A stretch of DNA of 64,000 nucleotides from Mucilaginibacter sp. (GCA_028288025.1 JAQBOM010000014.1:26477-90476); one strand, 5' to 3'; shown: positions 22,483-64,000, counted from the first letter of the stretch. The notes: a model not told the origin generated them from the sequence alone. Numbers and translations are program-made.

Positions 22483-22484
22483 TT

Positions 22485-24473: not shown

Positions 24474-24502
24474 TTTAACTAAAAATATATAAATTGACCA
24501 CC

Positions 24503-24880: not shown

Positions 24881-24884
24881 ACTG

Positions 24885-46400: not shown

Positions 46401-49157
46401 TATTTAACCAGCGCCGCGCTAACAAGCTTTGCCGCGGCGGGGACCAACAGCCAGATCACCGATACGTACTATGACAAACCCGTACCCACGGTAAGCGGCC
46501 ATACCAATGGGATAGCTACCCTGCCGGGGCAGAGCTACCTGCGCAAGCGCGTAGCGGCCAGCACCTATACCGAAACGCAGGGCAGCCCGGTGCTGCGGGC
46601 TACCTATTACAATTACGACCTGGACGGGAATGTAAAAACCTTGTGGCAGCAGGTGGACGGCCTTTATATCAACAGCAGCAATGCCGGGCTGAAGCGCATC
46701 GATTATGAATACGACCTGGTGAGCGGCAAGGTCAATTTCGTGCGCTACCAGGACGGGCAGCCAGATGCGTTTTATTATAGCTATCAATACGATGCTGATA
46801 ACCGCCTCACCAAAGCCTACAGCAGCGTAACAGCCATGGTGGATACCGCCCTGGGCAGTTTTCTGCCGGCGAGTATCAGGAAACTGGATGCGATCTATTA
46901 CTACTATTTGCATGGCCCGTTGCGACGGGAAGTAATAGGCGGAGACAGCGCGGGTGTGCAGGGGGTTGACTATGCCTATACCCTGCAGGGCTGGCTCAAA
47001 GGCGTAAACAGCACGGCGGCGACAGCGGCAATGGATATGGGGCAGGACGGCGCGGATGCGAGCCATAAGGTGGCGAGGGATGCGTATGGGTACTCGTTAG
47101 GTTATTATACGGGTGATTATACCCCGATAGGCGGAACAGGATACACTGCATTTGCCCTGCAGTATACAGCCACTACCGGTGATATAACCGGGCAGAGTTT
47201 GTATAACGGCAATATTTCAAACGCTACTTTAGCAGTTAACCAGCTGGGCAGCCCGGTAGGATACACCTACCATTACGATCAATTAAACCGCCTGAAAAAA
47301 ATGCGGCAGCATACCGGCATAAGCGGCACCAGCTGGGACAGGCACAGCATCACACCCAACTACCAGGAAAACGTGACCTACGATGGCAACGGAAACATCT
47401 TAACATACGGCAGGAACGGGGCCGCACCTACCGCGCAAACCATTGACAGCCTGACCTATAATTACAGCCACAGTGGCAACAAGTTAATTAATAACAGGCT
47501 GAACTCCATAAGCGACGCCATAGCCAATAGCAACTATAGCCTTGACCTGACTAACCAAACCAACCCGACAAACTACCGGTATGATGCGATTGGTAATTTG
47601 ATTTATGATGCGCAATCAGGTATTACCGGTAACGATGGTATAAATAGTATTACCTGGAGCGTTTACGGAAAAATATTAAACATCTATAAAACTACAGGGA
47701 CAATTAGTTACACTTACAACCCTGCCGGCGAGCGGGTAAGCAAAACGGTGGCCGGGTTGACAACTTTTTATATCAGGGATGCGCAAGGGAACACATTAGC
47801 TCTTTATGATAATAAGAGCAGCAATGTAAATTGGCGCGAACAGCATCTTTACGGTAGTAGCCGGATTGGTATGTGGACACCCAATGTGAACCTGGTAACT
47901 AATAACGCTTTAGCGGTATGGGATACGACAGGAAGAAAACAATACGAGCTGACTAACCATTTGGGAAACGTTTTGGAAACAGTTTCCGAGAAAAGATTAC
48001 AGCATACTACTAGCGGTACGAGTATTGACTACTATTTGGCTGATGTGGCTACGGCGCAGGATTATTACCCTTTTGGTATGCTGATGCCAGGTAGGCAGTA
48101 CAGTTTTAATAACGTGTACCGGTATGGTTTTAACGGGAAGGAGAATGATAATGAGGTGAAGGGGTTGGGGAACCAGCAGGATTATGGGAAACGCATTTAT
48201 GATGACAGGGTAGGAAGGTTTTTAAGTGTGGATCCATTACAGGTCAAATACGCTTCATTAACGCCTTATCAGTTTGCTTCTAATAGTCCAATTGATAATG
48301 TCGATTTGGATGGATTAGAAAAGATTTCTCAAAAACTTATAATTAGAGATGGAAAGCCAGTTTTACAGACTTTAAGTGCTGGGCCAAAGCGGCTTTCATT
48401 CCTTCAATGGGTTGTGGGCAGTAGTTCGAGTAGAGACGTACCACTTGAATATAATATTGAGTATTCAGGCCGAACATATAACTTCTCACCATCCTATGAA
48501 AAATTGGATAATGGTCTTCACCCAACATATTCAATGGAAGACTTGAAGAAGTTTTTGAGATCGCCCAATCAAAATAATCTTATTTCCGAAGATGAGGCAT
48601 ACGCAGGGTTTCAACGTCAGGTTATCATAAATACAGCAATTTATGATGTTGATCGCATTTCAGAAGGTGGGAACTTACTGCTAAATAATGCTCTTTCTAA
48701 TATTGCAATTAGCGTTCATAACGGCAATAATGAAGCCACTGAAGCCAACAATGCAGCTCAAAAGAAGCTACAGGTCGATACTTATGCACAATTGAAGAAA
48801 TCAAGTTCAAATTCGGGACTTAGTAATGATCACATACCATCGTTCGCTTCTTTAAAACATGCAGAACAAGAAAGGTTAGGACGAGATTTAAGCGCCCAAG
48901 AAGAGACAAATCTAAAAATGAATTCACTAACATTGTCAATTAAGACAATATTACATATCAAGAGTTCGGAAACATTTGGTGGCAAAAATACCAGGTCAAG
49001 ACAAATCCAAGACGCTAAAAATCCTTTGCAAGCAATCAGAAATAATGTTGAAGCGTATAGAGCCGAATTAAATAAGGAAGGTTACTCAAATGACGAAATT
49101 AACAAGGCAATACAAAAACTTTCCGTTCCATTTAACCAAAATAAAGCCGGGCCATAG
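40413..49157 (+). CDS. 2,914-aa RHS/YD-repeat polymorphic toxin with long non-RHS N-terminal region and variable C-terminal toxin tip
   Basis: Signal peptide is MRKILPLFYFIVLSSLLTLSSATCLA. YD repeats run from about aa 1,935 (YAYNSTNQVTQQNSPDGG..., YTTYDVLGRITEVGQ, YNYDLDGNV, YEYDLVSGKV, YQYDADNRL, YHYDQLNRL, YRYDAIGNL). The RHS core is YRYGFNGKENDNEV...DYGKRIYDDRVGRFLSVDPL...SPIDNVDLDGLE at 48.1-48.3 kb. A ~277-aa AT-rich tip follows. Confidence 0.9.
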   Translation: MRKILPLFYFIVLSSLLTLSSATCLARIESYRDSIKGPFANGTNYIYQDPNYSQTYTIHNPVQNTVALRVLDNVLISSAFTCTLSLRIDYYTYATNTLTTVYPSLTVNYAAGQGVTYKGLDIYSFQGAYKIQVTVLSSAYTGSTPPANSLQLTSDIVIDRTYAFSGGQVIGAAYTWATNGKQLQATWAPVSGAEEYDVEWTTINTGNSNFALLYANLTSHSSPNIPAVSTALAQCFRNNGSRITTKKDTCTLSVLSTDSLLLVRIRQAQYDPVSGVRVAGNWDYTKGIYYAMWVLNWNEQTQNWQYSAAFAEDGKKKEVISYFDGTLRGRQTVTINNSDNVALAQENIYDDFGRPSASILPAGYKEPSYTPYLHYIKNFNVISANTPYTFANVSGTTPALCELNPDPLSTLAGASRYYSNQNDFTGLNINNNYIPDAVGYPLSVTQYTNDNTGRIRSQGGVGLAFQPGKSGSPPLSKTTKYYYGKPEQWELDQLFGNDAGYAEHYLKNTVVDPNGQISVSYLNASGKTIATALAGLKPASLDTLTSYKPLLPAGKPRNLHILKPEQFIFNSTGLTLNANTTYLATAIGPDTLKFNMQQLIDYYPGGAFQVCSNCYYTMTAKVSDDCGNTIAAITTPLPIGSATANPLATGLFTTSLVAPIAAPGEYNVNIRLAFDNNVIQAYTDSMISKGIQNGYLEQQFGYIKKRYLDSIDVSACYSDCHTCKLLLGTKTDFAQMLRTKCIALGLDSVSVSGAPFTAWANQVYAADSTKCQSLQAGCSYSPCTSIQNVMQNDVSPGGQYALFDSSGITLEPSANVITEILPGATQQNWRVVFPVLLPTNPVYQANAIVLPDGTTTSPNDALFNIQQLITYWQPAWATSFLVYHPEYCRLQYCISNATYESWDMIVQQDINTAAAVPNIPTGGAPLSYAFDNPADWLMAGDPFFKSGGPGYSYASQMSTDLAQYSVNVLGISNSSQHPTRSVMAYIDFTLYCLDTLGNMNNARTIPDTPWTHCTPNPGCRVADREWALYQQYYFTAKQKYYTLLRNASCSTTAPCVIGQPLSSSLPGACPAITDFSVQLYTGASACTGTYQTVVVMHDAGSLSQTTTVTLYYPPALDNPGLTHNITFAAGQSQATICVPAAIPVTSIYVNGVYCPSYPYGNDPTYVVNVVDQSGGTLTNDCSNPTFVQRNTVITLKDSFGNPVNAVSPVTATINYNYTTCINPTPQVLAITLTIPIGQSSSTANGYVSLLDCTVPCHWGTKTIGIGCVQSLSNASNVTGLGTCTGYTYSNPQPPSGSCPAAYTVKIPRFPDATSNIAAQAAATTVSTQLTNPANAAVTAQAGDMCTAMSAAWISRLQPGLTAMGATPTQISALTAAFVSICSAGGDKTHPMGASTLPLPLRPGATDTTFGAAIKRILLGGGTFTTTLNPWLIDAPYPYTVKQQSVPRTISRSDTGLCSLIGRLTTAAGGSSYLYSYLVTTYGSAMTLSASDLTMLQNSCSSCKFLLATDVTLPVFLDPGAAACISYTVYQNAKTALVAQFGGTLPTTDPNYQTIFANYMNQQWGFSLTYADYAAYDASHPGLLCNTMPYTTIATDPNDCVKNAIAKAVIDGLADYNAYITNQRQLFKASYIGTCRLAQANANLNGLQQQYHYTLYYYDQADNLSRTIPPEGVTLFDTSRFGYIDKARDNDTAAYAYTYNGPTTASSLTTALTTLSATLSASVGSVEMWLYNNSTSNYHWVEATPDRSYLFQVGLSGNKLAIDVYPMVQPTGASIQLMPTSGHYQADISALLPLPPFAHVVFQGSNLGAGTSLPQLYLNGTQLTVSNTSAPSPFGFNITAGSTSVTFPDSIYSLKHLRLYTHLLTQATITADANNAFFNATDLTYTGWYRFNVPAPGTPPTTINANTSDETNIIDTYPNHALPTTYAYNSTNQVTQQNSPDGGTNSFWYDLLSRLVVSQNDKQLAGSNYSYTTYDVLGRITEVGQKNQTTVNIGAPDYLTSAALTSFAAAGTNSQITDTYYDKPVPTVSGHTNGIATLPGQSYLRKRVAASTYTETQGSPVLRATYYNYDLDGNVKTLWQQVDGLYINSSNAGLKRIDYEYDLVSGKVNFVRYQDGQPDAFYYSYQYDADNRLTKAYSSVTAMVDTALGSFLPASIRKLDAIYYYYLHGPLRREVIGGDSAGVQGVDYAYTLQGWLKGVNSTAATAAMDMGQDGADASHKVARDAYGYSLGYYTGDYTPIGGTGYTAFALQYTATTGDITGQSLYNGNISNATLAVNQLGSPVGYTYHYDQLNRLKKMRQHTGISGTSWDRHSITPNYQENVTYDGNGNILTYGRNGAAPTAQTIDSLTYNYSHSGNKLINNRLNSISDAIANSNYSLDLTNQTNPTNYRYDAIGNLIYDAQSGITGNDGINSITWSVYGKILNIYKTTGTISYTYNPAGERVSKTVAGLTTFYIRDAQGNTLALYDNKSSNVNWREQHLYGSSRIGMWTPNVNLVTNNALAVWDTTGRKQYELTNHLGNVLETVSEKRLQHTTSGTSIDYYLADVATAQDYYPFGMLMPGRQYSFNNVYRYGFNGKENDNEVKGLGNQQDYGKRIYDDRVGRFLSVDPLQVKYASLTPYQFASNSPIDNVDLDGLEKISQKLIIRDGKPVLQTLSAGPKRLSFLQWVVGSSSSRDVPLEYNIEYSGRTYNFSPSYEKLDNGLHPTYSMEDLKKFLRSPNQNNLISEDEAYAGFQRQVIINTAIYDVDRISEGGNLLLNNALSNIAISVHNGNNEATEANNAAQKKLQVDTYAQLKKSSSNSGLSNDHIPSFASLKHAEQERLGRDLSAQEETNLKMNSLTLSIKTILHIKSSETFGGKNTRSRQIQDAKNPLQAIRNNVEAYRAELNKEGYSNDEINKAIQKLSVPFNQNKAGP

Positions 49158-49764: not shown

Positions 49765-51657
49765 TTGCCTTTTGCCACTACTTTGCAAACTGGTGGCTAT
49801 TTAAGGCAATTATATAATGGGAATATAGTAGCTGCAAGTGTTAACATCCCGCAACTGACTTCAAGCACTTACTGGCTGGACAAGGTGTATACTTATGACC
49901 AGCTGAACCGGATAAAAAGCGCTACCGCATACCATACCGTTAGTACAAGCAGTACGCCGGTACACAACGGGGATTACGACGAGACATTCACTTATGACGG
50001 GAACGGGAATATATTAGCGGTTAACAGGGCGGGTTCCGGTACGGGTACGTTGAAAGATATAGAGAGCTATACGTACAACAGACATAGCAATGGCCAGTTG
50101 GTTAATAATCAACTTAATTACCTGAATGGGCATGCAGGGGCCAGCAATATTACACCTGACCAGGGTATTAATAACTATACTTATGACCCCATTGGGAATT
50201 TGACAGCCGATGTGCAAGCCGGTATTACAGCCATTGGCTGGAATGTATATGGTAAGATAACAAATATCAATAAAGCGACAGGCAATATTACTTATACCTA
50301 CAACCCCGCCGGGCAACGGGTAAGTAAAACGGTGGTCGGTTTAACTACTTACTATATCCGTGATGCACAGGGGAACACGCTGGCGCTTTATGATAATAAG
50401 AGCAGTAATGTAAACTGGCGGGAGCAGCATTTATACGGCAGCAGCCGCTTGGGTATGTGGACTCCAAATGTAAACCTCGCTATTAATAATGCTTTATCTG
50501 TTTGGGATACTACAGGCCGAAAACAATATGAACTCAGCAACCATTTAGGGAATATGCTGGCGACCATTAGTGATAAACGGCTGCAACACACAACAAGTGG
50601 TACCAGTATAGATTACTATAATGCGGATATTGCGACTGCACAGGATTATTATTCGTTTGGCAGTTTACAACCGGGCAGGCAGTACAATTTCAATAATGTT
50701 TACAGGTATGGGTTTAATGGGAAGGAGAATGATAATGAGGTAAGGGGTGTGGGTAATGAACAGGATTACGGGCAAAGGATTAATATAAATTGGGTTTGTA
50801 GGTTTTCAAGCGTGGACCCCATTAGCAGACAATATCCTGAATTGTCTTCTTATCAGTTTGCTGGTAATAATCCTATCTTAAATATCGATTTAGACGGACT
50901 AGAGCCAAAACGTTTACATTCGGACGATCCAATAACCGAGTTCTTCAATGATATTGCTTACAAATTTGAACTAAAGGTTTACAAATTCGACGCAAAAGTT
51001 TCGAAAATGAGCGATCAGCAAATACAAGACGGAATTAATAAAACAGCCGCCAGTATAATTCGAAATCCTATAAAAGTAGTAGATAATACAATAAAAGATA
51101 TAGAAAAGCAGGGGCATCAGGTTCCTAAAGACCTCAAAACTTTTTCACATCTCGTTGCAAATGGCGAAACGAAAAACGCAAAAGACTTTGCAGAAAATAA
51201 AATTGTTGAATATGCCCCGTGGGCGTTGTTTCTTGAAGAAAAGGAATTCGAAACGACTGCACCAAAGCTGTTTGAAAGTGAAACTGAAGTTCCCATTAAA
51301 GGAACAGGGGATTATCAAGACGTAGGTGGGCATCATGTGCATGCTAAAGCAGCATTTCGCGAAGTTGCAACTTATGACCCTAAAAGGGGATTTTCTGTAA
51401 GCCAAAAGCTAATGAGAGAATTAAACATCGATCACAATACTGTGACTCAAATGCAGAGACGCTTATTTAACGATTTGGCTAAAAGTGGACGACCTAATAC
51501 TTTGATCGAACAAACGAAAATTGCAAAAGAAGCGTTAATAGCCGGCGGGGCTACTGAAAAATTGGCCAATGACTTAATTAAAGCTTCCTTAGAAAACCTT
51601 AAAAGTCAAAATGTTACAGCACCTTCAAATATACCTTGGAATAAAAAGAATAACTAA
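49765..51657 (+). CDS. Orphan rhs C-terminal cassette (last YD repeats + core + alternative toxin tip with GHH-type HNH/EndoVII-like signature); lacks N-terminus and ATG
   Basis: The track ORF starts at TTG. Aa 1-380 parallel aa ~2,260-2,640 of the main RHS (e.g. YTYNPAGQRVSKTVVGLTTYYIRDAQGNTLALYDNKSSNVNWREQHLYGSSRLGMW). The tip after DLDGLE (50905 onward) is unrelated to the main tip and contains DVGGHHVHAKAAF. Confidence 0.75.
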   Translation: MPFATTLQTGGYLRQLYNGNIVAASVNIPQLTSSTYWLDKVYTYDQLNRIKSATAYHTVSTSSTPVHNGDYDETFTYDGNGNILAVNRAGSGTGTLKDIESYTYNRHSNGQLVNNQLNYLNGHAGASNITPDQGINNYTYDPIGNLTADVQAGITAIGWNVYGKITNINKATGNITYTYNPAGQRVSKTVVGLTTYYIRDAQGNTLALYDNKSSNVNWREQHLYGSSRLGMWTPNVNLAINNALSVWDTTGRKQYELSNHLGNMLATISDKRLQHTTSGTSIDYYNADIATAQDYYSFGSLQPGRQYNFNNVYRYGFNGKENDNEVRGVGNEQDYGQRININWVCRFSSVDPISRQYPELSSYQFAGNNPILNIDLDGLEPKRLHSDDPITEFFNDIAYKFELKVYKFDAKVSKMSDQQIQDGINKTAASIIRNPIKVVDNTIKDIEKQGHQVPKDLKTFSHLVANGETKNAKDFAENKIVEYAPWALFLEEKEFETTAPKLFESETEVPIKGTGDYQDVGGHHVHAKAAFREVATYDPKRGFSVSQKLMRELNIDHNTVTQMQRRLFNDLAKSGRPNTLIEQTKIAKEALIAGGATEKLANDLIKASLENLKSQNVTAPSNIPWNKKNN

Positions 51658-51662
51658 TATAT

Positions 51663-52037
51663 ATGATGGAAAAATTAGAATCGTTAGGTAAAGAAATAAT
51701 TGAAAATCTAAGAGATTTATCAATTGAAGAATATTTAGCAATTAAAAAGGGAAGTCTGAAATCAAGAGATGCCCAAAATATTTATAAAATATTCTCATCT
51801 GTAAATAAGAAAGATCAAGACAAGATCGATAAAATTGTTTTTAATGTCATTGATAGGGTTTTACATAACGCTTTATGGATGTTTGAACAAAGTAAAGACT
51901 TTACAATAACCGATAAGAATTTAATTAGCCCTAACGAAGATATTGTAGAAGAAAGTGATGGACTGTCAGGTGAATTATATAGTGAAGACGGCTGGATAGA
52001 AAAATACAGCAAATTCCCATTAGGTACTTCTATTTAG
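51663..52037 (+). CDS. Putative immunity protein for the orphan toxin tip
   Basis: 124 aa, acidic, no signal peptide, starting 5 nt after the orphan cassette stop. The call is positional. Confidence 0.55.
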   Translation: MMEKLESLGKEIIENLRDLSIEEYLAIKKGSLKSRDAQNIYKIFSSVNKKDQDKIDKIVFNVIDRVLHNALWMFEQSKDFTITDKNLISPNEDIVEESDGLSGELYSEDGWIEKYSKFPLGTSI

Positions 52038-52102
52038 GCTTGAGCGTGCGCAGCCGGGTACAGTTGCGAACGAATTAAAGAAAATAGGAACAGAACTATT
52101 AA

Positions 52103-52681
52103 ATGGGACATTCCCTAAATAAGATGAAAATATATAGCGTAAGACCTGATAGTAATAACGTTCAGTGGGTTATACCAATAGTCCCAGAAGAAAATATCTT
52201 AAGTGTGTTATCTTTTGATTGCATTACCAAGAAAAATGGGTTCGATAATATTGAATGGTATATATTCAATCCGAAAGAAAGGAAAGGTAATTTCTATACC
52301 GGAGTGAATGGCGCTTTAATTTTTGATCAGGAAGTATATGATAGCGATCTTTCTATTTTATTTGAAATGGCTGGAGAGATATTGCCCATTAAACTCGAAA
52401 ATGGTGAAATATTATATGCTCTTAACGTTTTGGAATGTGTTAACATGTTAAATCAAAAAGAAACAACCTATGATATTTACGATAGTGGCAAAAGAGGGAG
52501 AATTCTAAATTATTCGTTTCATCCAGACAGATTATCAGAATCATCTATTTTTAAAATCCCGGAAACTTCTCGCGTAGAGATTTTGACTTATACAGATGTT
52601 AAGTATCCGGATGATGAATTTTATACCGTATATAAAGAATCCGGTTTTACAGGGTTAGTTTTTGAGGAAATTTGGGGGTAG
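52103..52681 (+). CDS. Additional immunity-like protein without adjacent toxin (orphan immunity candidate)
   Basis: 192 aa (the alternative start is MKIYSV at 52124), cytoplasmic-looking and AT-rich. It is the last gene of the block. Confidence 0.45.
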   Translation: MGHSLNKMKIYSVRPDSNNVQWVIPIVPEENILSVLSFDCITKKNGFDNIEWYIFNPKERKGNFYTGVNGALIFDQEVYDSDLSILFEMAGEILPIKLENGEILYALNVLECVNMLNQKETTYDIYDSGKRGRILNYSFHPDRLSESSIFKIPETSRVEILTYTDVKYPDDEFYTVYKESGFTGLVFEEIWG

Positions 52682-53430: not shown

Positions 53431-53529
53431 GAATTGTGTGATTATTTGGTTTTGTTTGAGGGGGGGGTAAAACCAAAAACGCCTTAAATCATTGATTTAA
53501 AGCGTTTTTGGTTTATTTAAAAATATAAC

Positions 53530-53557: not shown

Positions 53558-53838
53558 GATATTTTGCTTAATCCATTTTAAGTAAAAAGTGCTTTAGTAT
53601 ATGTAAATGACTATTTTACAAAACCGAACTAAATTAAACTTAGCCTGTATTACAAAATAATTGCTACCAATTTTGCTACCTAATTTTATTGTAATTGCAT
53701 TTCGTTTAAGTTTTTACATAATAAGCGACATTATGTTTCGATATAAAGTGACGAGAATCAACTTTCAACCTGAAATAGGTTAACTTTTTGACAGATACAT
53801 GTTTTGATATTTGTTGTACGGTCCTTATACCGACTGAT

Positions 53839-54891
53839 ATGACTGAAAAAATATTAATTATTGAAGACAACCTCGACATCCGCGAAAATATCGTTGAAAT
53901 CTTGACCCTTGCCGGTTATGTTGTAGATGCAGCAAGCAATGGGAAAACAGGTGTGAGTTCTGCATTGAAAAATGTACCTGATCTTATAATTTGCGATATT
54001 ATGATGCCTGAACTTGATGGTTATAGCGTTTTACATCTTCTAAATAAAAATGCCAACACGGCCGCTATTCCTTTTATTTTTCTAACAGCAAAGGCCGATC
54101 GCGTTGATTTGCGCAAGGGAATGGAAATGGGCGCAGACGATTACCTCACCAAACCATTTGATGATATGGAGTTATTAAATGCGATTGAAATCAGGTTTAA
54201 GAAAAGGCAAGGTCTTAAAAATTTCTATAGTAAATCACTCGACCAACTAACCGCGCTGGTATCAAAGAATAGCGGTTTAGACGAACTAAAAAAAATCATT
54301 AAAGAACGTAAAAGCAGGCAGTTTAAAAAAAATCAAGTCATTTTTTACGAGGGAGATAAAGGGAAGGGACTCTATATTGTAATTACCGGAAAAGTTAAAA
54401 CTGTTAAACAGGCGGAAGACGGGCGTGAATTAATGACTGGTATTTATTCAGCGGATGATTATCTCGGAATAAATGCTATGCTTTCAAACGAGTCATATAC
54501 AGATACTGCTACTGCTTTAGAGGACAGCTTATTATGCGTGATACCAAGGGAACAAGTGGAGCAATTGTTGAATTTGTACCCGGATGTCGCCCGTGAATTC
54601 ATAAATATCTTGTCAAAAGATGTGCGTGAAAAGGAAGAACAAATGCTGCAATTAGCGTACAACTCTGTACGAAAAAAGATGGCCGAAGCCATTTTACGCT
54701 TATTCCGACAGGGTGAAAAATACAAAGAAAGTTTCAAAATATCCCGGGACGACCTCGCCGCAATGTCAGGTATGGCAACAGAAACAGTCAGCCGTACGCT
54801 GTCCGATTTTAGGGACGATGGTCTAATTGAAAAAAAGGGAAGCGTCCTTACAATACTCGATCAGGCTCGACTTGTAAAAATGAAAAACTGA
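53839..54891 (+). CDS. Response-regulator receiver fused to cNMP-binding domain and Crp/Fnr-type HTH
   Basis: Track ORF 53788..54891; the likely start is ATG 53839 (MTEKILIIEDNLDIREN). It has a receiver (CDIMMPELDG...TKP), a cNMP-binding part (VIFYEGDKGKGLYIVITGKVK) and an HTH (SRDDLAAMSGMATETVSRTLSDFRDDGLI). Confidence 0.85.
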   Translation: MTEKILIIEDNLDIRENIVEILTLAGYVVDAASNGKTGVSSALKNVPDLIICDIMMPELDGYSVLHLLNKNANTAAIPFIFLTAKADRVDLRKGMEMGADDYLTKPFDDMELLNAIEIRFKKRQGLKNFYSKSLDQLTALVSKNSGLDELKKIIKERKSRQFKKNQVIFYEGDKGKGLYIVITGKVKTVKQAEDGRELMTGIYSADDYLGINAMLSNESYTDTATALEDSLLCVIPREQVEQLLNLYPDVAREFINILSKDVREKEEQMLQLAYNSVRKKMAEAILRLFRQGEKYKESFKISRDDLAAMSGMATETVSRTLSDFRDDGLIEKKGSVLTILDQARLVKMKN

Positions 54892-54944
54892 CGTACATCA
54901 TTATTCCAACTGATGCTGCTCATAGCACACCGCAGCGTTACCCG

Positions 54945-57381: not shown

Positions 57382-57789
57382 GTATAGATACTCAACTTAA
57401 AATATTATGGGAACATCGAATATGGTTTTAATTATTTTAGTGCTTGGACTGTATTTGGAATAACTTGTTACTTTATTGGAACCCGAAAAGAAATCGATGC
57501 TTTAGCAGCGGATTTCCTCGGTATGGTACCTGGAATTATAGGTCTTATTATAGGTCTTCTATCCCCCCGAAGAGAACCTATTCGTTTCTCCGATCAATTA
57601 CGTAAGTATAAAACATTGTTTGATAGCGGCATAATTATGGAAACTGATACGCTAATCTAAAAGGGAACTTTTTGAACAAAAATAAGTTGAAAAAGCATGA
57701 ACAGACCTGCGGTGAAAGTGTGTGCTGTTATTAGGATACACTTTGCCGAACAGTTTTTGCAAAATTTCTAAATGTTGCACCACATCCCT

Positions 57790-57872
57790 GTCGCAAAACC
57801 TTCGGAAACATGATGTGTGAATTATGTAATTTATCTACAAAATTATATAACGTATACCGTCGCAAAACCTTC
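57790..57872 (+). repeat. Two exact copies of GTCGCAAAACCTTC, 69 nt apart, in the leader of the 58029 operon
   Basis: Copies at 57790-57803 and 57859-57872, read directly. Confidence 0.8.
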
Positions 57873-57950
57873 AAATTTAAGGAATCTTTTAATCCCTAAC
57901 CTGCCAAGGCAATTACTCTTTATACCATCTGATTCATGTCATCTTTAATA

Positions 57951-57964
57951 GTGACGTGGGTCAT
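57951..57964. promoter_or_regulatory. Candidate Crp/Fnr-type operator GTGACGtggGTCAT (TGAC-N4-GTCA core)
   Basis: Palindromic core ~65 nt upstream of ATG 58029. A sister site lies at 61451-61464, and a related GTGACGAGAATCAAC lies upstream of the regulator gene (~53748-53762). Confidence 0.35.
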
Positions 57965-58028
57965 ATTTCCCCTCATCATACCGCGGTAATTTAGCAGTCG
58001 AAAGAAGTTAGAACAGTCACACTATATT

Positions 58029-59369
58029 ATGTCAATCATGAAACTAACACAAAACAAAAAATTTTGGGTAACCGCAACAATTATTCTTTTTTTAGGGTAC
58101 ATAGTAAGCTGTACCAAAAAAGATCAGATCATTACCAACAACGCTCCGGTTAGTACAACCACATTGGTGTCTGTTAAAACCGCAACACCACCTACCATTG
58201 ATGGTGTAATAGACGCCGCATGGAATAATGCGCCCAAACTAAATATTTTACCAACGGTGCCGAATCCGGGTAATGGACTATTTACAGGATATAATGGACA
58301 GGTGTATCCTGCAACGCTACGTTCAATGTACGATGATAAATATATCTACTTTCTGGCCCAATGGAGCGATGCGGAAAAAAGTGTTTATGTGGCCACATGG
58401 TATTTTGACCCTGCTTTAAAAGTGTGGGCGCAGGAGCCAACAGGGAAAGCCTTTGATTCAAATGGCAACTTGATCCGTGATGGTTTTGGTGAGGATAAAT
58501 TTGCAATGCTGTTTAACATTGACAATTCAACTCCGCTGTTTATATCACAATCCTGCTACGCGAGCTGTCATGTGTTTACACCTTATACCAACTACGCTGT
58601 TACGCCAGTTGTCGAGGCTTCAAATGCAAACAGCGGCAACCATTATACGAATGGTGCAAGTGAAAAAATCGATATGTGGTGGGGACATTTAAGCAGAGAC
58701 CTCATTTTTAACCAGATAGACGATAATTACCAGGACTGGGCCGGCGGCCCGGGTGTAACAAGCTTGGTGGGGGGATCGGGTAATGGCCGCCACGTAGATA
58801 ATGTTGTTGTATCAGGAGCGTCAAAAACATGGCCTTTTGCTCCAACATATACAACTGCCGCCGCACAAGGCGCCGTTAATAACAAGCAGTCGCTAAAATT
58901 AGACGGTACAGGTGCTACGGTTAGCGTACCAATGTGGATCATCCCCAATGCTGCCAATTATTATTACATTTTAGCGACCGACACATTAGCGGGCGGTAAA
59001 GCTGTTAAAATTAACGGGGTAAGTTCAACAGGTGTGCTAACCTATACCGGCGGGACAATCGACCCCAATACCGATACTGGCTACCTACGTACAGGTGATG
59101 CAGTTATGGGCGGAGACGGGGCAAAAGCATTTCCGAGTTACATCGCTTCTCCCTTAGTTGGTGGCAGGGCCGATATCACAGGTGCCGCAATTTACACTGG
59201 TACAGGCTGGGTTGTTGAATACAAAAGACTGTTAAAAACTGGTGACCTGTTAAAGCAGGATGTTGATTTTACAAGCCTGCAAGACCAGCAATTTGGTTTC
59301 GCCATCTGGAACAAGTCAAACAACCAGCACGGTATTCAGCCATATCTTACATTGACATTTAAGAAATAG
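58029..59369 (+). CDS. Lipoprotein with ethylbenzene-dehydrogenase-gamma/DOMON-like (haem-binding-type) domain
   Basis: 446 aa with lipobox LGYIVSC. TIDGVIDAAWNNAPKL...YDDKYIYFLAQWSD resembles the EB_dh/CBM9-like fold family. It contains CYASCH (CX3CH) at 58554-58571. Confidence 0.6.
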   Translation: MSIMKLTQNKKFWVTATIILFLGYIVSCTKKDQIITNNAPVSTTTLVSVKTATPPTIDGVIDAAWNNAPKLNILPTVPNPGNGLFTGYNGQVYPATLRSMYDDKYIYFLAQWSDAEKSVYVATWYFDPALKVWAQEPTGKAFDSNGNLIRDGFGEDKFAMLFNIDNSTPLFISQSCYASCHVFTPYTNYAVTPVVEASNANSGNHYTNGASEKIDMWWGHLSRDLIFNQIDDNYQDWAGGPGVTSLVGGSGNGRHVDNVVVSGASKTWPFAPTYTTAAAQGAVNNKQSLKLDGTGATVSVPMWIIPNAANYYYILATDTLAGGKAVKINGVSSTGVLTYTGGTIDPNTDTGYLRTGDAVMGGDGAKAFPSYIASPLVGGRADITGAAIYTGTGWVVEYKRLLKTGDLLKQDVDFTSLQDQQFGFAIWNKSNNQHGIQPYLTLTFKK

Positions 59370-59394
59370 AAAACTGTTTCTAAAACTTAACAAA

Positions 59395-59799
59395 ATGATC
59401 ACGTCAAAGAAAATAATAGGAGTTGGGTTGATTTTAGTGGCGGTATTTGTATTGGTTATAGCCAGTTGTACAAAAAACAACACGGTTGTGATTGACAATA
59501 CTCCGGCCATAACAAGAACAGTAAGTTTTGCAAAAGACATTCAGCCAATTCTAACAAAAAGCTGCGCAGTAAGCGGCTGTCATAGCGGATCGGTAGCACC
59601 AAATTTATCAGAGGCAACATCGTTTAACGCCCTAAGCAGCGGCAATTTTATAAATACAGCATCGCCAAAAAGCAGCGACGTTTATTTGTGGCTTACTGGT
59701 AAAAAAGCGGTAGCCATGCCAGCCGGTGCAGCCAATAATCCTTCAAATATCAACCCTTTAATGCTGGCCTGGATTACCCAGGGAGCCAAAAACAATTAA
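59395..59799 (+). CDS. Small lipoprotein with cytochrome-c-domain-like layout and CX4CH motif
   Basis: 134 aa with lipobox VIASC. DIQPILTKSCAVSGCH...SDVYLWLTGKKAVAMP...LMLAWITQGAKNN. It is a paralogue of 62349..62732. Confidence 0.65.
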   Translation: MITSKKIIGVGLILVAVFVLVIASCTKNNTVVIDNTPAITRTVSFAKDIQPILTKSCAVSGCHSGSVAPNLSEATSFNALSSGNFINTASPKSSDVYLWLTGKKAVAMPAGAANNPSNINPLMLAWITQGAKNN

Positions 59800-59809
59800 A
59801 AGCACAAAA

Positions 59810-60787
59810 ATGAAAAAACGAAATAAATATTCGTCACCGCTATCTTTCGTAGCAACAGTGTGTCTCGTGATTCTATTGTGCGGCAGCTCGTTTAAAGTTG
59901 AGGCTCAAGCTAAAACTGCTAAAAAAGATACTTCCGCTAAAAAAGCCGGCGCTGAGACTGACACTACGGCAGTTGCGCCCGTTAAAAAAACAGCGTATGC
60001 AAAAAACACGTTCGACGGGAATTTTATCATCGATAATCAAACAGTGATGGTCCCGATCAAAGGAACATTTGAATTTGACATACAGCACCGTTTTGGCGTT
60101 GTGAGCAACGGAACCAAAGATTTGTTCGGCATTTTTGGCGGCGCCACCATGAAACTTGGTTTTAGCTATACAGTGGTTAATAATTTACAACTCGGGTTTG
60201 ACGCTACCAATGAAAACATGATCGTTGACTGGAACCTGAAATTTGCGATCCTAAAGCAAACAAAAAGCGGCTCGATGCCGGTAAGCATTACTTATTTTGG
60301 TAATGCAGCAATGGATACGCGGAAAAAGGATAATACAACCTTGTTCGTAACTACTTCGGACCGTTTCAGCTATTTTAACCAGATCATTATAGCCAGAAAG
60401 TTTTCGGACAAAGTTTCGATACAGGTTGCCCCCAGTGTGTCACACTTTAATAACCTGGAGGGGTATTTAGATCCAAATACAGGCAAAGTAATGCCTTTGA
60501 TGAAACATGATAACTTTTCAATCGCTGTTGCTGGTCGGTATAAAATTGCCGAGGGTGTAGCGCTTATGGCAAATTACGACCAGCCACTTACACAGAACCC
60601 GGCAAATAACCCACATCCAAACCTGAGTTTTGGTATTGAAATGAAAACCAGCGGGCACGATTTTGAAGTATTCTTTGGCAATTATAGTTCTTTAATACCA
60701 CAGAATAATAATGTTTTTAATCAAAACGATTTTAAGAAAGGGCAGTTCCTGATCGGGTTCAATATCTCCAGGCTTTGGAATTTTTGA
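59810..60787 (+). CDS. Outer-membrane beta-barrel protein (unknown family; paralogue of 62753..63715)
   Basis: 325 aa with a signal peptide, alternating amphipathic strands and a C-terminal FLIGFNISRLWNF (aromatic terminus typical of OMPs). Confidence 0.7.
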   Translation: MKKRNKYSSPLSFVATVCLVILLCGSSFKVEAQAKTAKKDTSAKKAGAETDTTAVAPVKKTAYAKNTFDGNFIIDNQTVMVPIKGTFEFDIQHRFGVVSNGTKDLFGIFGGATMKLGFSYTVVNNLQLGFDATNENMIVDWNLKFAILKQTKSGSMPVSITYFGNAAMDTRKKDNTTLFVTTSDRFSYFNQIIIARKFSDKVSIQVAPSVSHFNNLEGYLDPNTGKVMPLMKHDNFSIAVAGRYKIAEGVALMANYDQPLTQNPANNPHPNLSFGIEMKTSGHDFEVFFGNYSSLIPQNNNVFNQNDFKKGQFLIGFNISRLWNF

Positions 60788-60821
60788 ATAATTAAATAGC
60801 AATCAGAATAGGATAGGTAAG

Positions 60822-61361
60822 ATGGGTAATAGTTTTTTCATTTATATCCAGACGCTTGAACTGATGGCTTTTTTTGCAGGATATCCATTAATATATGCCA
60901 TTGTCGTTTATATCGCAGACAGCCGGAGGCTAAGCAATAGTCTCATTAGCAGGATAGATTCGTTTTTACCTTTCGCATATGCGTTAGTAGGGACTTTATT
61001 TCTCGGGTTCCAATTAAAAAAACTATATCCCGACTATTCTGCCGCAAATATTAATCAGGTTATTCAACAACCCTGGCTTATTGGCTGGGCGCTGCTTTCT
61101 ATTCTTTTTTGGCTTCCATGGTTTGCCGGGAAAAAGATTTTAAGTTTAATTCACAGTTTTTTATTCTTTTCTTTTTTGATAAAGGACATCATTCTGCAAT
61201 TATTCACCTCATCACGTGATGGAAATATCATTAATAATGATATGAAAGTATATGCCGAAAGCCTTTTCCTCAACCTTGCTTGCATCGCGATTATCGTCTT
61301 CGCATACGGCTTGGTTTTACTTCTAAAAAGGCGATTAAAGCGCTTATCGCCTCCTGTTTAA
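60822..61361 (+). CDS. Integral membrane protein, unknown function
   Basis: 179 aa with about 5 hydrophobic helices. Confidence 0.55.
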   Translation: MGNSFFIYIQTLELMAFFAGYPLIYAIVVYIADSRRLSNSLISRIDSFLPFAYALVGTLFLGFQLKKLYPDYSAANINQVIQQPWLIGWALLSILFWLPWFAGKKILSLIHSFLFFSFLIKDIILQLFTSSRDGNIINNDMKVYAESLFLNLACIAIIVFAYGLVLLLKRRLKRLSPPV

Positions 61362-61450
61362 GCCTTCTTTTCCCGTTGTTGCTCACTATCTTTTCGTGTT
61401 TTAAAAATCTAAAAATCAATGGTTTGATGGCTGCTTGACTTTGACATTGT

Positions 61451-61464
61451 GTGACGAATGTCAT
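61451..61464. promoter_or_regulatory. Candidate Crp/Fnr-type operator GTGACGaatGTCAT
   Basis: It has the same TGAC-N4-GTCA core as 57951-57964 (11/14 identical). It lies ~90 nt upstream of ATG 61555, embedded in TTGACtTTGACattgtGTGACgaaTGTCA. Confidence 0.35.
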
Positions 61465-61554
61465 TTTATTGGCTGATCGAGCGCATATAAATTGAGGCTT
61501 TTAACCAACACCTTTGATTAATTAAAACATTCAATCATTATTTATTAAAATATT

Positions 61555-62331
61555 ATGAAACGTATAGACAACAGGATGCTGATGATTTTTTTAATACTCA
61601 TTAGCGGCATTGGATTAATTGCCAGTTGCGTTCACAAAAATGAGGTATTACCGGCCTCTGCTTCTACAGCAGTGATCATTACTCACGGCAGCCGTATTCA
61701 CCTGCCGGGCTTAGCGGGCGATACCACCAAATGGAAATTCGATAAGGTGCATAGCGCGGTTAACTGGTCGACCCCCTTTCAGGCAGTGGGCGCCCCACTG
61801 ACCGGCAAATTCAATCAATTTGGCATAGCTGATATATCCAGCGCACAAATGCAAAATTATGTTACAGCTGCTCAGCCGTTAGCGGATACCTCCTGGTCGT
61901 TTTATGAAAATCAACCGAAAAAGATACATTTTAGTGGTTATGTCCAGATCAACCAGGTCAACACCGGCGAGCCGGGCCGCGATCAGGGTTGTCTTGTTTC
62001 TACGCTTGGCACATCGGCAATTGTGGCCGGCACCCAAAATCTTACGGTGTCAAATATTGCACTTATTAAAACAACTTCAGTTGATTTTGATCCGCTAAGT
62101 AATGATTACCTGGCAACATTTAATTTCACCTGGCTGGGTAAGATGGGCGCGCCCGTTACTGAATCAATAGTAGGTAGGTTAACTTATGTACCTGCTGCTG
62201 TAACTGGAACACATAAAGAATTTGGCCTGGTGTTAAAATTTCAGATTAATTGCAGGCACTACGGTGTTACCAGTACCAATGTGGCAGATATAATAGCCAT
62301 TGAGGTTCATGCAAATTTCAACAACCAATAA
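61555..62331 (+). CDS. YceI-like lipoprotein
   Basis: 258 aa with lipobox LIASC. KWKFDKVHSAVNWSTPF...APLTGKFNQFG is the YceI-family N-terminal signature. Confidence 0.65.
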   Translation: MKRIDNRMLMIFLILISGIGLIASCVHKNEVLPASASTAVIITHGSRIHLPGLAGDTTKWKFDKVHSAVNWSTPFQAVGAPLTGKFNQFGIADISSAQMQNYVTAAQPLADTSWSFYENQPKKIHFSGYVQINQVNTGEPGRDQGCLVSTLGTSAIVAGTQNLTVSNIALIKTTSVDFDPLSNDYLATFNFTWLGKMGAPVTESIVGRLTYVPAAVTGTHKEFGLVLKFQINCRHYGVTSTNVADIIAIEVHANFNNQ

Positions 62332-62348
62332 TTACTAAATAAATCACC

Positions 62349-62732
62349 ATGAAATCAGTAATAATATTTACAGCTCTGCTCTTAGTAATTGCAGTTGGTT
62401 TTACTTCGTGTTATAAGGATGTTAATGTTCCAACGCCTGCCACCGATCCTAACGGACCACCGCAACAATGGAGTTATGTAAAAAATATTGAGCCATTGTT
62501 TATAACCAATTGTGCCTTGTCAGGCTGCCATGTGGCGGGCTCACAAAAACCCAATCTTGGGCAAGGCATATCATATCTCAGCCTTGTAAATGGCGGGTAT
62601 GTTAACACACTTGTGCCTGCCCAAAGCGTGCTTTATATCATGATAAACGGAAACATGCAGGAACATATTCAGAGTGCAGCAGACCGAAAGAAGATTTACG
62701 ACTGGATTAGAACTGGTGCGCTTAATAATTAA
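62349..62732 (+). CDS. Small lipoprotein with CX4CH motif (paralogue of 59395..59799)
   Basis: 127 aa with lipobox GFTSC. IEPLFITNCALSGCH...SVLYIMINGNMQEH...IYDWIRTGALNN. Confidence 0.65.
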   Translation: MKSVIIFTALLLVIAVGFTSCYKDVNVPTPATDPNGPPQQWSYVKNIEPLFITNCALSGCHVAGSQKPNLGQGISYLSLVNGGYVNTLVPAQSVLYIMINGNMQEHIQSAADRKKIYDWIRTGALNN

Positions 62733-62752
62733 CCCACCTAAAAAAAGATAAC

Positions 62753-63715
62753 GTGAAACTAAATATAAATTTCCAGAAACGACTGTTTGCAACATGCCTT
62801 GCCAGCAGTCTGCTATTCATTCAGACTGCTGCGAGCGGCCAGGATACCACAGCAGCAAAAGAAAGAGTTGGCGCGGTAAAAGCTAAACCGGTAAAAAACA
62901 CTTTTCAAAGTACATGGATAATTGATAACCAAACTGTAATGGTGCCTGTAAAAGGTACTTTTGAAATGGATATTATGCACAGGTTTGGAACCGTCACCAA
63001 AGGTTATGACGATCTTTGGGGATTATTTGCATCTTCAAATATCCGAATTGGGGTTGATTATGCACCTATAAATAACCTGTACCTGGGCGTCGGCCTTGAT
63101 AAATATGATCAGCTTTGGGATGGAAGCGCAAAGTTCGCTATAGTTAAGCAAACCAGAGGCAGCATGCCAGTCAGTGTCACCTACTATGGCGATCTGACCA
63201 TTGACTCAAGGAAAGATCCTACGCATGACATTTTCAACCGTTCATCCGACCGGATTTACTCTTTTAATCAACTGATTATCGCGAGAAAGATCAGCGACAA
63301 ACTTTCATTACAGGTAGCGCCAAGCATCTCGCATCAGAATGCGGTAGCGGGGTATTATGTGAAAGTAGATAGTACCAGAACAACATTATTCGAAAGAATG
63401 AAACACGACCATTTCGCAGTTTCGGTCGCGGGCAGGTACAAAATAGGAGAAGCAACTGCCGTATTATTAAATTACGATCAGCCAATTACAGCACATGCCA
63501 CTGATAATCCAACCCCTAATCTATCATTTGGGTTTGAATTTAGCACAAGCGGTCATACATTTCAACTGTTTATGGGAAACTATTCCTTGCTAAACCCCGC
63601 TAAAAACAACCTGTTCAATGTAAACAGCCCTTTTAACTACAGCCAAACTGGCGGTACCAAAGTGAAAGGCGGTATGTTCCTGATCGGGTTTAATATTACC
63701 CGGTTGTGGAATTGA
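62753..63715 (+). CDS. Outer-membrane beta-barrel protein (paralogue of 59810..60787)
   Basis: 320 aa with a GTG start. It shares NTF.....IIDNQTVMVP.KGTFE.DI.HRFG, MPVS.TY.G, FNQ.IIARK.SDK.S.QVAPS.SH and the terminal FLIGFNITRLWN with the first barrel. Confidence 0.7.
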   Translation: MKLNINFQKRLFATCLASSLLFIQTAASGQDTTAAKERVGAVKAKPVKNTFQSTWIIDNQTVMVPVKGTFEMDIMHRFGTVTKGYDDLWGLFASSNIRIGVDYAPINNLYLGVGLDKYDQLWDGSAKFAIVKQTRGSMPVSVTYYGDLTIDSRKDPTHDIFNRSSDRIYSFNQLIIARKISDKLSLQVAPSISHQNAVAGYYVKVDSTRTTLFERMKHDHFAVSVAGRYKIGEATAVLLNYDQPITAHATDNPTPNLSFGFEFSTSGHTFQLFMGNYSLLNPAKNNLFNVNSPFNYSQTGGTKVKGGMFLIGFNITRLWN

Positions 63716-63936
63716 AAATACGGCCGGTTATAACATGCAACCGGTGTATATTTTCAGACTGTTTTTAAAATGAATAATTAAGATGAAATGCAATTTAACG
63801 ATGTTGACCTCAATATGTGCAGTAACCACAAGGGGCGCCGCATATGTGAATTATATAACATCTTTCATTAATTGTATAACTCCTTTTAGATTAAAGCACT
63901 CAATTTTATATAATTATTAACTTAAGAATTATAACT

Positions 63937-64000
63937 ATGAAAAGTAAATTAATATTAGCGGCTTCCGTATTGACCGTATGTACGATGAGCCTGGCATTTA
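63937..64000 (+). CDS. Start of a secreted/lipoprotein gene, truncated by the right edge
   Basis: ATG at 63937 gives MKSKLILAASVLTVCTMSLAF..., which is signal-peptide-like. Only 21 codons are visible. Confidence 0.4.
   Translation, partial: MKSKLILAASVLTVCTMSLAF

Follow-up and report, generated by a model that had tools for sequence, protein, structure and literature searches.

A predicted CX4CH cytochrome and its DUF5777 barrel partner in a conserved Bacteroidota gene cluster that may form the outer-membrane end of a low-oxygen, quinol-linked chain

Several described systems couple cytochromes to an outer-membrane barrel or to the quinone pool. In the porin-cytochrome conduits MtrCAB and PioAB and in those of Geobacter, a cytochrome gene adjoins a barrel gene, lipoprotein cytochromes take part, and carriers in the inner membrane and periplasm link the set to the quinone pool; the conduits consist of deca- or multihaem wires held in barrels of 20-28 strands. 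In Cyc2 of Fe(II) oxidisers, a single c-type haem with a canonical CXXCH site is combined with a modest-sized outer-membrane barrel of ~16 strands in one polypeptide, in a setting of microoxic physiology. Alternative complex III (ACIII; ActABCDEF), DsrOP, NrfCD and QrcCD have in common a poly-ferredoxin exported by the twin-arginine translocation (Tat) pathway, an NrfD-family subunit, a monohaem cytochrome c and a single-transmembrane (TM) accessory protein. Features of these systems recur in the locus described here, which occupies positions 58,029 to 63,715 of a 64,000-nucleotide stretch of DNA from Mucilaginibacter sp. (GCA_028288025.1, JAQBOM010000014.1:26477-90476; hereafter the window). 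A preliminary description of the locus had seen in it two copies of a three-part envelope module, each with a ligand- or haem-type lipoprotein, a small CX4CH lipoprotein and a beta-barrel, and had likened these to MtrAB-type conduits working in low-oxygen physiology. Here, the region is tentatively read as the outer-membrane end of a self-contained, low-oxygen-induced and quinol-linked chain with outward electron flow, in which the barrel would be a substrate channel or a dock; this preferred reading is given a little less than an even chance. It draws on the following genes, the last four of which lie on a related contig (L001) that extends beyond the window:

58029..59369, + strand: EB_dh/DOMON-like beta-sandwich lipoprotein, 446 amino acids (aa) (Pfam EB_dh, 2e-21)
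59395..59799, + strand: small lipoprotein A, 134 aa, predicted PSCyt1/PccH-type monohaem cytochrome c by homology, C57-AVSG-C62-H63
59810..60787, + strand: DUF5777 outer-membrane beta-barrel A, 325 aa (Pfam DUF5777, 1e-76)
60822..61361, + strand: 5-TM membrane protein, 179 aa; H111 is invariant and the third helix is rich in Trp; no family match
61555..62331, + strand: YceI-like lipoprotein, 258 aa, which takes the place of EB_dh in an accessory module (Pfam YceI, 3.7e-4)
62349..62732, + strand: small lipoprotein B, 127 aa, predicted paralogous CX4CH monohaem cytochrome, C55-ALSG-C60-H61 (32% identity to A)
62753..63715, + strand: DUF5777 outer-membrane beta-barrel B, 320 aa, GTG start (Pfam DUF5777, 5e-75)
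63938..64000, + strand: soluble monohaem cytochrome c, 135 aa, CASCH, first 21 codons in the window (Cytochrome_CBB3, 8e-11 in L001)
L001 15126-15404: 92-aa Tat protein (p92), twin-arginine motif SRRKFV
L001 15409-16338: DsrO/NrfC-like iron-sulfur (Fe-S) protein, 309 aa, Tat motif SRRNFL (Fer4_11, 2e-23)
L001, downstream block: DsrP/NrfD-type quinone-site membrane protein (NrfD, 2e-31)
L001, last of the downstream block: 296-aa anchored protein (p296): signal peptide, Ig-like region, C-terminal anchor

The seven open reading frames (ORFs) of the two modules were recovered where the preliminary description had placed them, all on the + strand, and are separated within each module by gaps of only 10-35 nucleotides (nt). 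The names that close homologues carry also assign the window to Mucilaginibacter (Sphingobacteriaceae, Bacteroidota). As that description had held, the small proteins are paralogues of each other (E = 4e-18), as are the barrels (49% identity, E = 3e-103); the first genes of the two modules, EB_dh and YceI-like, are unrelated in pairwise comparison (E > 6). The shared blocks that it listed are present in both barrels (IIDNQTVMVP.KGTFE.DI.HRFG and FLIGFNI[ST]RLWN) and in both small proteins (C[AV].SGCH and WI..GA.NN), although its block 'I.P[IL]...C' is one residue short, as four residues rather than three separate P[IL] from the Cys. Likewise, its family guesses (EB_dh, YceI-like, a PSCyt-like cytochrome and a beta-barrel family) held in profile searches. 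Both trios are real, but they make up only part of a larger unit. On L001, a near-identical metagenomic contig (99.5% identity), five more conserved genes come after barrel B, the first of them cut by the window end, in the order cytochrome c, p92, DsrO-like, DsrP-like and p296, and this continuation into a cytochrome c and an NrfCD/DsrOP-type quinone module strengthens the redox reading that had been proposed.

The gene set is recurrent. One genome per species was scanned, at least 574 species-level genomes were found to carry a DUF5777 relative, and the 80 closest loci were examined. In these related loci, a PSCyt1-like cytochrome gene lies directly upstream of 97 of 100 DUF5777 genes. The synteny survey that had been suggested for Bacteroidota shows that the trio components co-occur, with the order EB_dh-small protein-barrel in 72 of the 80 loci, followed by the cytochrome c gene in 63; the block from cytochrome c through p92, DsrO and DsrP to p296 is found in 57, and all eight genes are present in 50 of the 53 loci with enough flanking sequence. 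A single genome keeps EB_dh, small protein, barrel and cytochrome c only, without the quinone module. Among the related loci the flanking genes are not conserved between genomes and no further conserved enzyme lies near the cluster, which is thus considered self-contained, with no additional enzyme belonging to it. The examined loci come from Mucilaginibacter, Ferruginibacter, Sediminibacterium, Niastella, Puia and Limnovirga and from many metagenome-assembled genomes of Chitinophagaceae, with habitats that are largely boreal lakes, peat and soil. Cultured carriers include Mucilaginibacter frigoritolerans, M. xinganensis, Niastella vici, Ferruginibacter paludis, Limnovirga soli and Emticicia aquatica.

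The barrels match DUF5777 (PF19089) over the whole profile length, with 257.6 bits for A and 252.5 bits for B against a cut-off of 23.1. In barrel A, the ~12-strand domain is accompanied by a type-I signal peptide, a Lys/Ala/Thr-rich linker and the beta-signal ...RLWNF at the C-terminus; barrel B is identical over its full length to a database protein. The mature barrel domain has ~250 residues, and its AlphaFold2 (AF2) model shows 12 strands (predicted local distance difference test, pLDDT, 52). Both AF2 models made here are of low confidence (pLDDT 52 and 56, shallow alignments) and were used for fold class and strand count only. The best fold matches of the barrel model are NanC (TM-score 0.66), the COG4313 channel, FapF and OmpG, all barrels of 12 to 14 strands, and the alignment-based amphipathicity profile gives 11-12 segments. 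The length of the domain alone excludes more than ~16 strands. A folded 100-residue cytochrome does not fit inside a barrel of this size, nor can the membrane be spanned by a single haem; the analogy to MtrAB drawn in the preliminary description therefore fails at the level of structure, and an MtrB-like sheath was rejected on barrel size and haem count. Sequence inspection found no haem motif in the barrels. A separate observation concerns three invariant His residues of DUF5777 barrels (H93, H212 and H283 of barrel A, at ~60086, 60443 and 60656), all of which are predicted in a hydrophobic, outward-facing register near strand ends. This would be unusual for an outer-membrane barrel, and the residues could provide a contact surface for a protein, a metal or a haem.

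The identification of the small proteins as c-type cytochromes with a widened haem site is well supported by sequence, with covalent haem binding predicted. Each carries one haem motif, and all 77 A-type and all 12 B-type homologues keep CX4CH. M108-P109 of small protein A, also conserved, is a candidate for the distal ligand, Met-Pro being the usual context of such a ligand. The assignment further rests on a single-domain CXXCH lipoprotein of the same size (P0406), which is 42% identical to small protein A (E = 2e-27), passes the cut-offs of Pfam Cytochrom_C (26.8 > 21.3) and PSCyt1 (23 > 22), and differs at the haem site solely by a two-residue gap inside the Cys pair. Another relative of the small proteins, at locus L051, passes the PSCyt1 cut-off as well. 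An exhaustive search recovered 4790 clusters of relatives, many of them tandem arrays of a ~95-residue domain, in which CX4CH and CXXCH alternate within the scaffold DIxPI…C..CH…WIxQGAxNN, sometimes inside one protein. FoxE (5mab), PccH (4rlr) and hydrazine synthase alpha (HZS-alpha; 5c2v, C-terminal haem domain) have the same small cytochrome c scaffold as the window proteins, in which (F/I)xxDIxPI...C..CH lies close to the N-terminus and the C-terminus carries WIxxGA. Searches of the Protein Data Bank (PDB) with the small-family profile gave marginal matches to these structures (HZS-alpha haem site 0.004, PccH 0.04, FoxE 0.29), and in the alignments the Cys pair of the solved CXXCH proteins is spread by exactly two residues. 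Unlike FoxE, PccH and HZS-alpha, the window proteins have CX4CH, are lipoproteins and are always paired with a DUF5777 barrel.

The larger lipoprotein of the first module belongs to Pfam EB_dh (PF09459; 77.5 bits, gathering cut-off 33.3), with an additional weak match to CBM9. Foldseek aligned its model to NxrC (7b04, 4e-7) and EbdC (2ivf_C, 7e-5), and NxrC was also matched by sequence. The EB_dh fold is interrupted by an insertion of ~140 residues (~166-306) that carries C176-x3-C180-H181; AF2 could not model this insertion, and a search with residues 160-312 alone found no PDB or Pfam relative. All 67 homologues have CYxxCH, H205, H255 and H434; the lipobox Cys28 is invariant too, and the invariant polar residues around CX3CH include H205, K213, W217-W218 and R254-H255. 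In NxrC, haem b is ligated by Met155 and Lys305 (PMC8387239). Lys305 aligns to P438 of the lipoprotein, with the invariant H434 four residues earlier; the Met position falls in an unaligned region, and CX3CH is not placeable relative to the canonical Met. The invariance of CX3CH suggests a covalent haem, and our working hypothesis is that a covalent, His-ligated haem replaces the Met/Lys-ligated haem b, which would make the lipoprotein a candidate terminal redox protein. The gamma subunits EbdC, NxrC, SerC, ClrC and DdhC have the same EB_dh/DOMON-like beta-sandwich. They hold haem b via Met and Lys and are docked on subunits with molybdenum-bis-molybdopterin guanine dinucleotide and Fe-S clusters, those of the EbdC/NxrC type being encoded with the alpha subunit and an EbdB/NarH-type beta subunit, whereas the protein of the window is a stand-alone lipoprotein with the 140-residue insertion and the invariant CX3CH. 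None of the 80 loci holds a gene for a molybdoenzyme alpha subunit, and the Fe-S protein of the cluster scores 85.8 against a DMSO_red_II_bet cut-off of 480.7. Assignment of the lipoprotein as the gamma subunit of a type II dimethyl sulfoxide reductase was rejected, as the alpha subunit is missing and the ligands of the haem are not the same.

The same invariant polar residues raise a different possibility, as they resemble an active site more than an electron relay: the EB_dh-fold haem lipoprotein could be the catalytic subunit, fed by cytochrome c and quinol, of a periplasmic detoxifying or respiratory reductase for H2O2, nitric oxide (NO), nitrite or chlorite, with the barrel as a dedicated porin or anchor. 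Other bacteria are known to have peroxidases and NO reductases that depend on quinol or a cytochrome and are under Fnr control, and the cluster conserves no other candidate catalytic enzyme. Small oxidants, however, pass through general porins, which leaves a strictly co-inherited private barrel (the 97 of 100 cases above) unexplained; module B exchanges the putative enzyme for a YceI-type lipid or isoprenoid binder and keeps the cytochrome and the barrel, pointing to the pair as the core; and the EB_dh lipoprotein has no similarity to known peroxidases, NO reductases or nitrite reductases. Such a reductase is considered unlikely.

Module B deserves separate consideration. The preliminary description had assigned the 5-TM gene to module A, but it lies directly upstream of the YceI gene in all 13 loci that have one and is absent from the 67 loci that do not, and it is thus moved to module B; Pfam and other profile searches gave no family match for its product. 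The YceI-like lipoprotein scores just under the gathering cut-off of Pfam YceI (PF04264; 21.3 versus 23.7 bits, profile positions 1-150) and has a conserved N-T-G-E-P-x-R-D block. The resulting set (5-TM protein, YceI-like lipoprotein, small protein B and barrel B) occurs in 13 of the 80 loci as an accessory cassette, which can lie 5' of the EB_dh gene or else follow barrel A and precede the cytochrome c gene, the arrangement in this window. A third cassette, present in six loci, encodes a PSCyt1 lipoprotein of 396 aa, a dihaem-like protein of 207 aa, a clear member of the YceI family (6e-17, 62.9 bits in Pfam) and a DUF5777 barrel. The cytochrome-barrel pair hence recurs in three paralogous cassette types, and it is considered the invariant core because the third partner, EB_dh or YceI, varies. 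The third cassette lies upstream of the core cluster (L051 2737-7861; also L024, L044, L061, L072 and L080) and includes multidomain CX4CH cytochromes and a divergent barrel. Its 207-aa protein has an odd C-G-C-H sequence, and the opposite strand encodes a 271-aa protein that appears DOMON/CBM9-like by eye and has no Pfam match. YceI-YceJ (cytochrome b561) pairs and DOMON-cytochrome b561 proteins similarly couple a YceI- or DOMON-type beta-protein genetically to a cytochrome and a small membrane protein. In the cluster, by contrast, the partner cytochromes are predicted c-type lipoproteins and the set includes an outer-membrane barrel, and the 5-TM protein, unlike YceJ and b561, has a single conserved His and lacks the b561 signature.

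The presence of a YceI-like protein also bears on whether the cluster could serve cofactor trafficking, with the EB_dh and YceI lipoproteins carrying haem or isoprenoid quinone to or through the outer membrane via the barrel and the small proteins acting as accessory redox partners or chaperones. YceI proteins bind polyisoprenoids, EB_dh/DOMON/CBM9 folds bind haem or sugars, hemN is adjacent in the window, and channels for hydrophobic compounds, of the COG4313 and FadL types, are among the best fold matches of the barrel, a weak match to a poor model. Against this, transport alone hardly explains why the cluster is so strictly tied to a cytochrome c and an Fe-S/NrfD quinone module; a covalently fixed cofactor, rather than one carried as cargo, is implied by the invariant CX3CH; and hemN is adjacent in only 3 of the related loci. 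Like catalysis by the EB_dh protein, which we rate marginally above it, trafficking is one of the less likely roles, and is improbable.

The EB_dh, YceI and small proteins have lipoboxes, whereas the soluble cytochrome c mostly does not. In Bacteroidota, the signal for surface export follows the lipidated Cys and reads C-X-K-(D/E)2-X or S-D-D-D-D (PMC5080379). Small protein A (C-[YST]-K-T-[TS]-T) has no acidic residue at these positions, and the EB_dh lipoprotein (C-T-K-[NK]-D-Q) and small protein B (C-Y-K-D-V-I) have one each, so none carries the signal. For this reason the lipoproteins are more likely anchored in the outer membrane and turned towards the periplasm, a tentative assignment, as the export rule was derived in other genera.

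The quinone module is related to known families at the level of its subunits. The DsrO/NrfC-like protein has three complete Cys clusters and three further Cys, and matches to NCBIfam DsrO (1e-56; 191.5 against a cut-off of 200) and DsrP (2e-40; 139.5 against 350) are both below the equivalog cut-offs. No meaningful family match was found for p92 or p296, the latter with a sub-threshold match to Big_1 only. It was also observed that p92 and the DsrO-like protein share L-(L/T)-x-D-G-x-(V/I)-(V/I)-E-(V/I) just past the signal.

Control of the cluster by oxygen supply is suggested by the regulator gene and the operator-like boxes of the window:

53788..54891, + strand: hybrid regulator with receiver, cyclic-nucleotide-binding and Crp/Fnr helix-turn-helix domains (Response_reg 3e-28, cNMP_binding 6e-24, HTH_Crp_2 3e-16)
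54888..54923, unstranded: two weak Fnr-like boxes, 22 bp apart, 5' of ldhA-hemN: CTGACGTACATCAT, CTGATGCTGCTCAT
57929..57964, unstranded: paired Crp/Fnr-type boxes CTGATTCATGTCAT, GTGACGTGGGTCAT, 22 bp apart, 65-100 bp 5' of the EB_dh gene
61451..61464, unstranded: Crp/Fnr-type box GTGACGAATGTCAT, 91 bp upstream of the YceI-like gene

The pair in front of the EB_dh gene consists of a box at 57951-57964 and a weaker partner at 57929. Across related loci, RTGAY-N4-RTCAY is found 5' of the EB_dh gene in 49 of 67 cases, compared with 0.035 expected per 300 nt, and is often paired (~-103 and ~-81, the second copy 22 bp downstream). It also occurs 5' of the YceI gene in 8 of 13 (at ~-110) and 5' of the cytochrome c gene in 14 of 76. 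This sequence has the same TGAY-N4-RTCA core as the Fnr/FixK box (TTGAT-N4-ATCAA-like). The conservation of the box supports the shared operator and the low-oxygen context that had been proposed, and the window combines the two features of an Fnr/FixK regulon, a promoter-proximal palindromic box and a regulator of the Crp/Fnr family, whose binding is predicted. The hybrid regulator matches the NCBIfam Fnr subfamily (3e-28, under its cut-off), has a homologue within 10 kb of the cluster in ~9 other loci and is the candidate reader of the boxes. Its gene precedes ldhA, which is followed by hemN (TIGR00538, 4e-127). Each of the boxes 5' of ldhA-hemN has two mismatches to ATGAT-N4-ATCAT, and their 22-bp spacing is that of the EB_dh pair; as regulatory context they are only suggestive. 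A sigma-70 promoter scan performed no better than on shuffled sequence, as expected given that Bacteroidota promoters differ.

Taken together, these observations can be arranged into a possible chain. In the inner membrane, the NrfD/DsrP-type subunit would oxidise menaquinol, and its Tat-exported periplasmic DsrO/NrfC-type Fe-S partner would take the electrons on, the two acting as a 'mini alternative-complex-III'. The soluble monohaem cytochrome c would ferry electrons over the periplasm to two lipid-anchored, atypical c-type cytochromes at the outer membrane, one of the CX4CH PSCyt1 type and one with CX3CH in an EB_dh/DOMON fold. The ~12-strand DUF5777 barrel would not be a cytochrome sheath; it might admit or present a small redox-active substrate, or merely dock the cytochromes in a putative complex. 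Quinol oxidation would deliver electrons outward onto a diffusible or outer-membrane-proximal acceptor, with chelated Fe(III) or quinone-like humics as the leading candidates, and module B might be an accessory second terminal with an isoprenoid- or quinone-type binder in place of the haem protein. Outward flow to Fe(III) or humics would fit the co-regulation with fermentation and anaerobic haem synthesis as well as the habitats of the carriers.

It should be noted that several points weigh against this reading. The small proteins of the window have no Pfam match themselves, so that calling them cytochromes is transitive via a relative, and attachment of haem at CX3CH and CX4CH by the haem lyases of Bacteroidota is assumed from precedent in other phyla, where such sites occur in tetrahaem cytochromes c3. 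The strand count of the barrel and any pocket geometry are approximate, the AF2 models being poor. Beyond the closest 80 loci, more distant DUF5777 genes may have other contexts. The preliminary description knew of no characterised function for the trio, and full-text literature searches on DUF5777 and the gene set likewise turned up nothing relevant. The locus was found in five soil DNA metagenome runs and in no RNA runs. Finally, known NrfCD-type modules operate either way, Qrc being one that reduces quinone, and the only solved relatives of the small cytochromes, the Fe(II) oxidase FoxE and PccH, which takes up electrons from a cathode, act in electron uptake, although the matches to them are weak (E 0.04-0.29).

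The last two points favour a reversal of the same chain, in which the outer-membrane cytochromes would oxidise an external or periplasmic donor such as Fe(II) or humic hydroquinones under microoxia, and electrons would pass via the soluble cytochrome c to a high-affinity oxidase, via the NrfCD-type module to the quinone pool, or both. This would amount to a split Cyc2/FoxE-like donor-oxidation system. The NCBIfam matches of the quinone module include the quinone-reducing QrcC and QrcD, the one locus that lacks this module would fit a cytochrome c feeding an oxidase, the boreal lakes, peat and soil of the carriers are places where Fe(II) or reduced humics meet low oxygen, and Fnr-type control suits microaerobic physiology as well as anoxia. 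On the other hand, the cluster adjoins ldhA and the oxygen-independent hemN, and box-like sites are common to them, which speaks for a shortage of acceptors rather than the use of donors; the heterotrophic carriers have no obvious requirement for donors of this sort; and the resemblance to FoxE and PccH is remote in a PSCyt1 domain as widespread as the 4790 clusters indicate. Inward flow is thus a serious alternative, though doubtful and clearly behind outward flow to an acceptor, which is retained here as the preferred reading. As a whole, the earlier interpretation of the locus is partly supported.

Several further observations were made around the cluster and elsewhere in the window. In Emticicia aquatica (Cytophagales; L084 1-9749), the full eight-gene set lies beside phage-type integrase genes and a CRISPR-Cas adaptation module, an association that hints at horizontal transfer of the cluster between orders of Bacteroidota. 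A motif of ~39 nt, ATGTGAATTAT.TAA...TATAAC, is repeated 5' of the EB_dh gene (57813-57851) and 5' of the cytochrome c gene (63842-63880), with an exact 14-nt direct repeat, GTCGCAAAACCTTC, flanking the first copy (57790-57803 and 57859-57872). The motif may be a second regulatory or promoter element common to the two transcription units. The 650-bp gap between hemN and the EB_dh gene (57382-58028) contains short ORFs only, for example one of 45 aa with a hydrophobic N-terminus (57523-57660), and an RNA family scan gave no Rfam match there or at the locus as a whole. Near the 3' end of ldhA, the window has one extra C relative to L001 (55873; L001 6481), owing to which its ldhA ORF extends to 56015, encodes 350 aa that include a Cys-rich tail and overlaps that of hemN; the L001 ldhA ends at the equivalent of 55926, indicating a frameshift or sequencing error in one of the two assemblies. 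The gap 5' of the regulator gene holds a near-perfect hairpin (53470-53517), which gave sub-threshold Rfam matches on both strands (plastid 3' untranslated region and microRNA models, 27-33 bits where 48-95 are needed) and is most likely terminator-like or a chance palindrome. Farther upstream, at 20278-25928, a fusion of a receiver to an adenylate/guanylate cyclase comes after two histidine kinases, of which one has 7TMR-DISM sensor domains; the fusion is a possible source of cyclic nucleotide for the cNMP-binding regulator. A run of large same-strand ORFs occupies 28533-49157, one of them encoding 2914 aa (40413-49157); the four that were scanned had no Pfam match at E<=1e-5. It is succeeded at 49765-52681 by an RHS-repeat protein (630 aa) and two small ORFs (124 and 192 aa), where the GC fraction falls to ~0.32; this region may be a polymorphic toxin tip with its immunity genes.

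Should the cluster be a respiratory terminal, it would represent a strategy against oxygen limitation in aerobic-looking heterotrophic Bacteroidota that current annotation pipelines do not see. It would also add two atypical contexts for haem c, namely CX4CH in a PSCyt1 scaffold and CX3CH in the EB_dh/DOMON fold, a fold that normally holds haem b, and would entail a partnership of cytochrome and barrel that is not workable by the sheath principle of MtrAB. A more specific proposal, and a more speculative one, is that it constitutes a Bacteroidota-specific wiring from the quinone pool to the exterior, with CX4CH monohaem and covalent-haem EB_dh lipoproteins on a 12-strand barrel and a minimal ACIII-like feed; we regard this as possible though distinctly less probable than the chain outlined above. 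If it were true, the Chitinophagaceae and Sphingobacteriaceae that abound in soil, peat and lakes could, with no multihaem cytochrome, use extracellular Fe(III) or humic quinones for respiration or else oxidise Fe(II) or hydroquinones, and the cluster would escape screens for extracellular electron transfer that rely on counts of multihaem proteins.

Comparison with the described systems places the cluster close to several and within none. It has the adjacency and co-inheritance of cytochrome and barrel genes seen in Mtr-type conduits, with their lipoprotein cytochromes and quinone-pool link; it differs from them in its monohaem cytochromes and in a barrel of ~12 strands, and there is no sequence relationship, as the barrel (DUF5777) and cytochrome (PSCyt1-like) families are both different. 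From Cyc2, which it resembles in haem number, barrel scale and microoxic setting, it differs in having separate genes, lipid-anchored CX4CH cytochromes and two extra partner proteins (EB_dh or YceI), and a Cyc2-like fusion was rejected because of the separate genes, the barrel without a haem motif and the barrel size. It lacks the pentahaem ActA, the molybdopterin-like ActB1 domain and the second NrfD subunit of ACIII, as well as the DsrMKJ proteins of DsrMKJOP. Every domain thus lies in or is related to a named family, while the assembly matches no described system; the cluster may work like a porin-cytochrome respiratory terminal, on a different structural principle.

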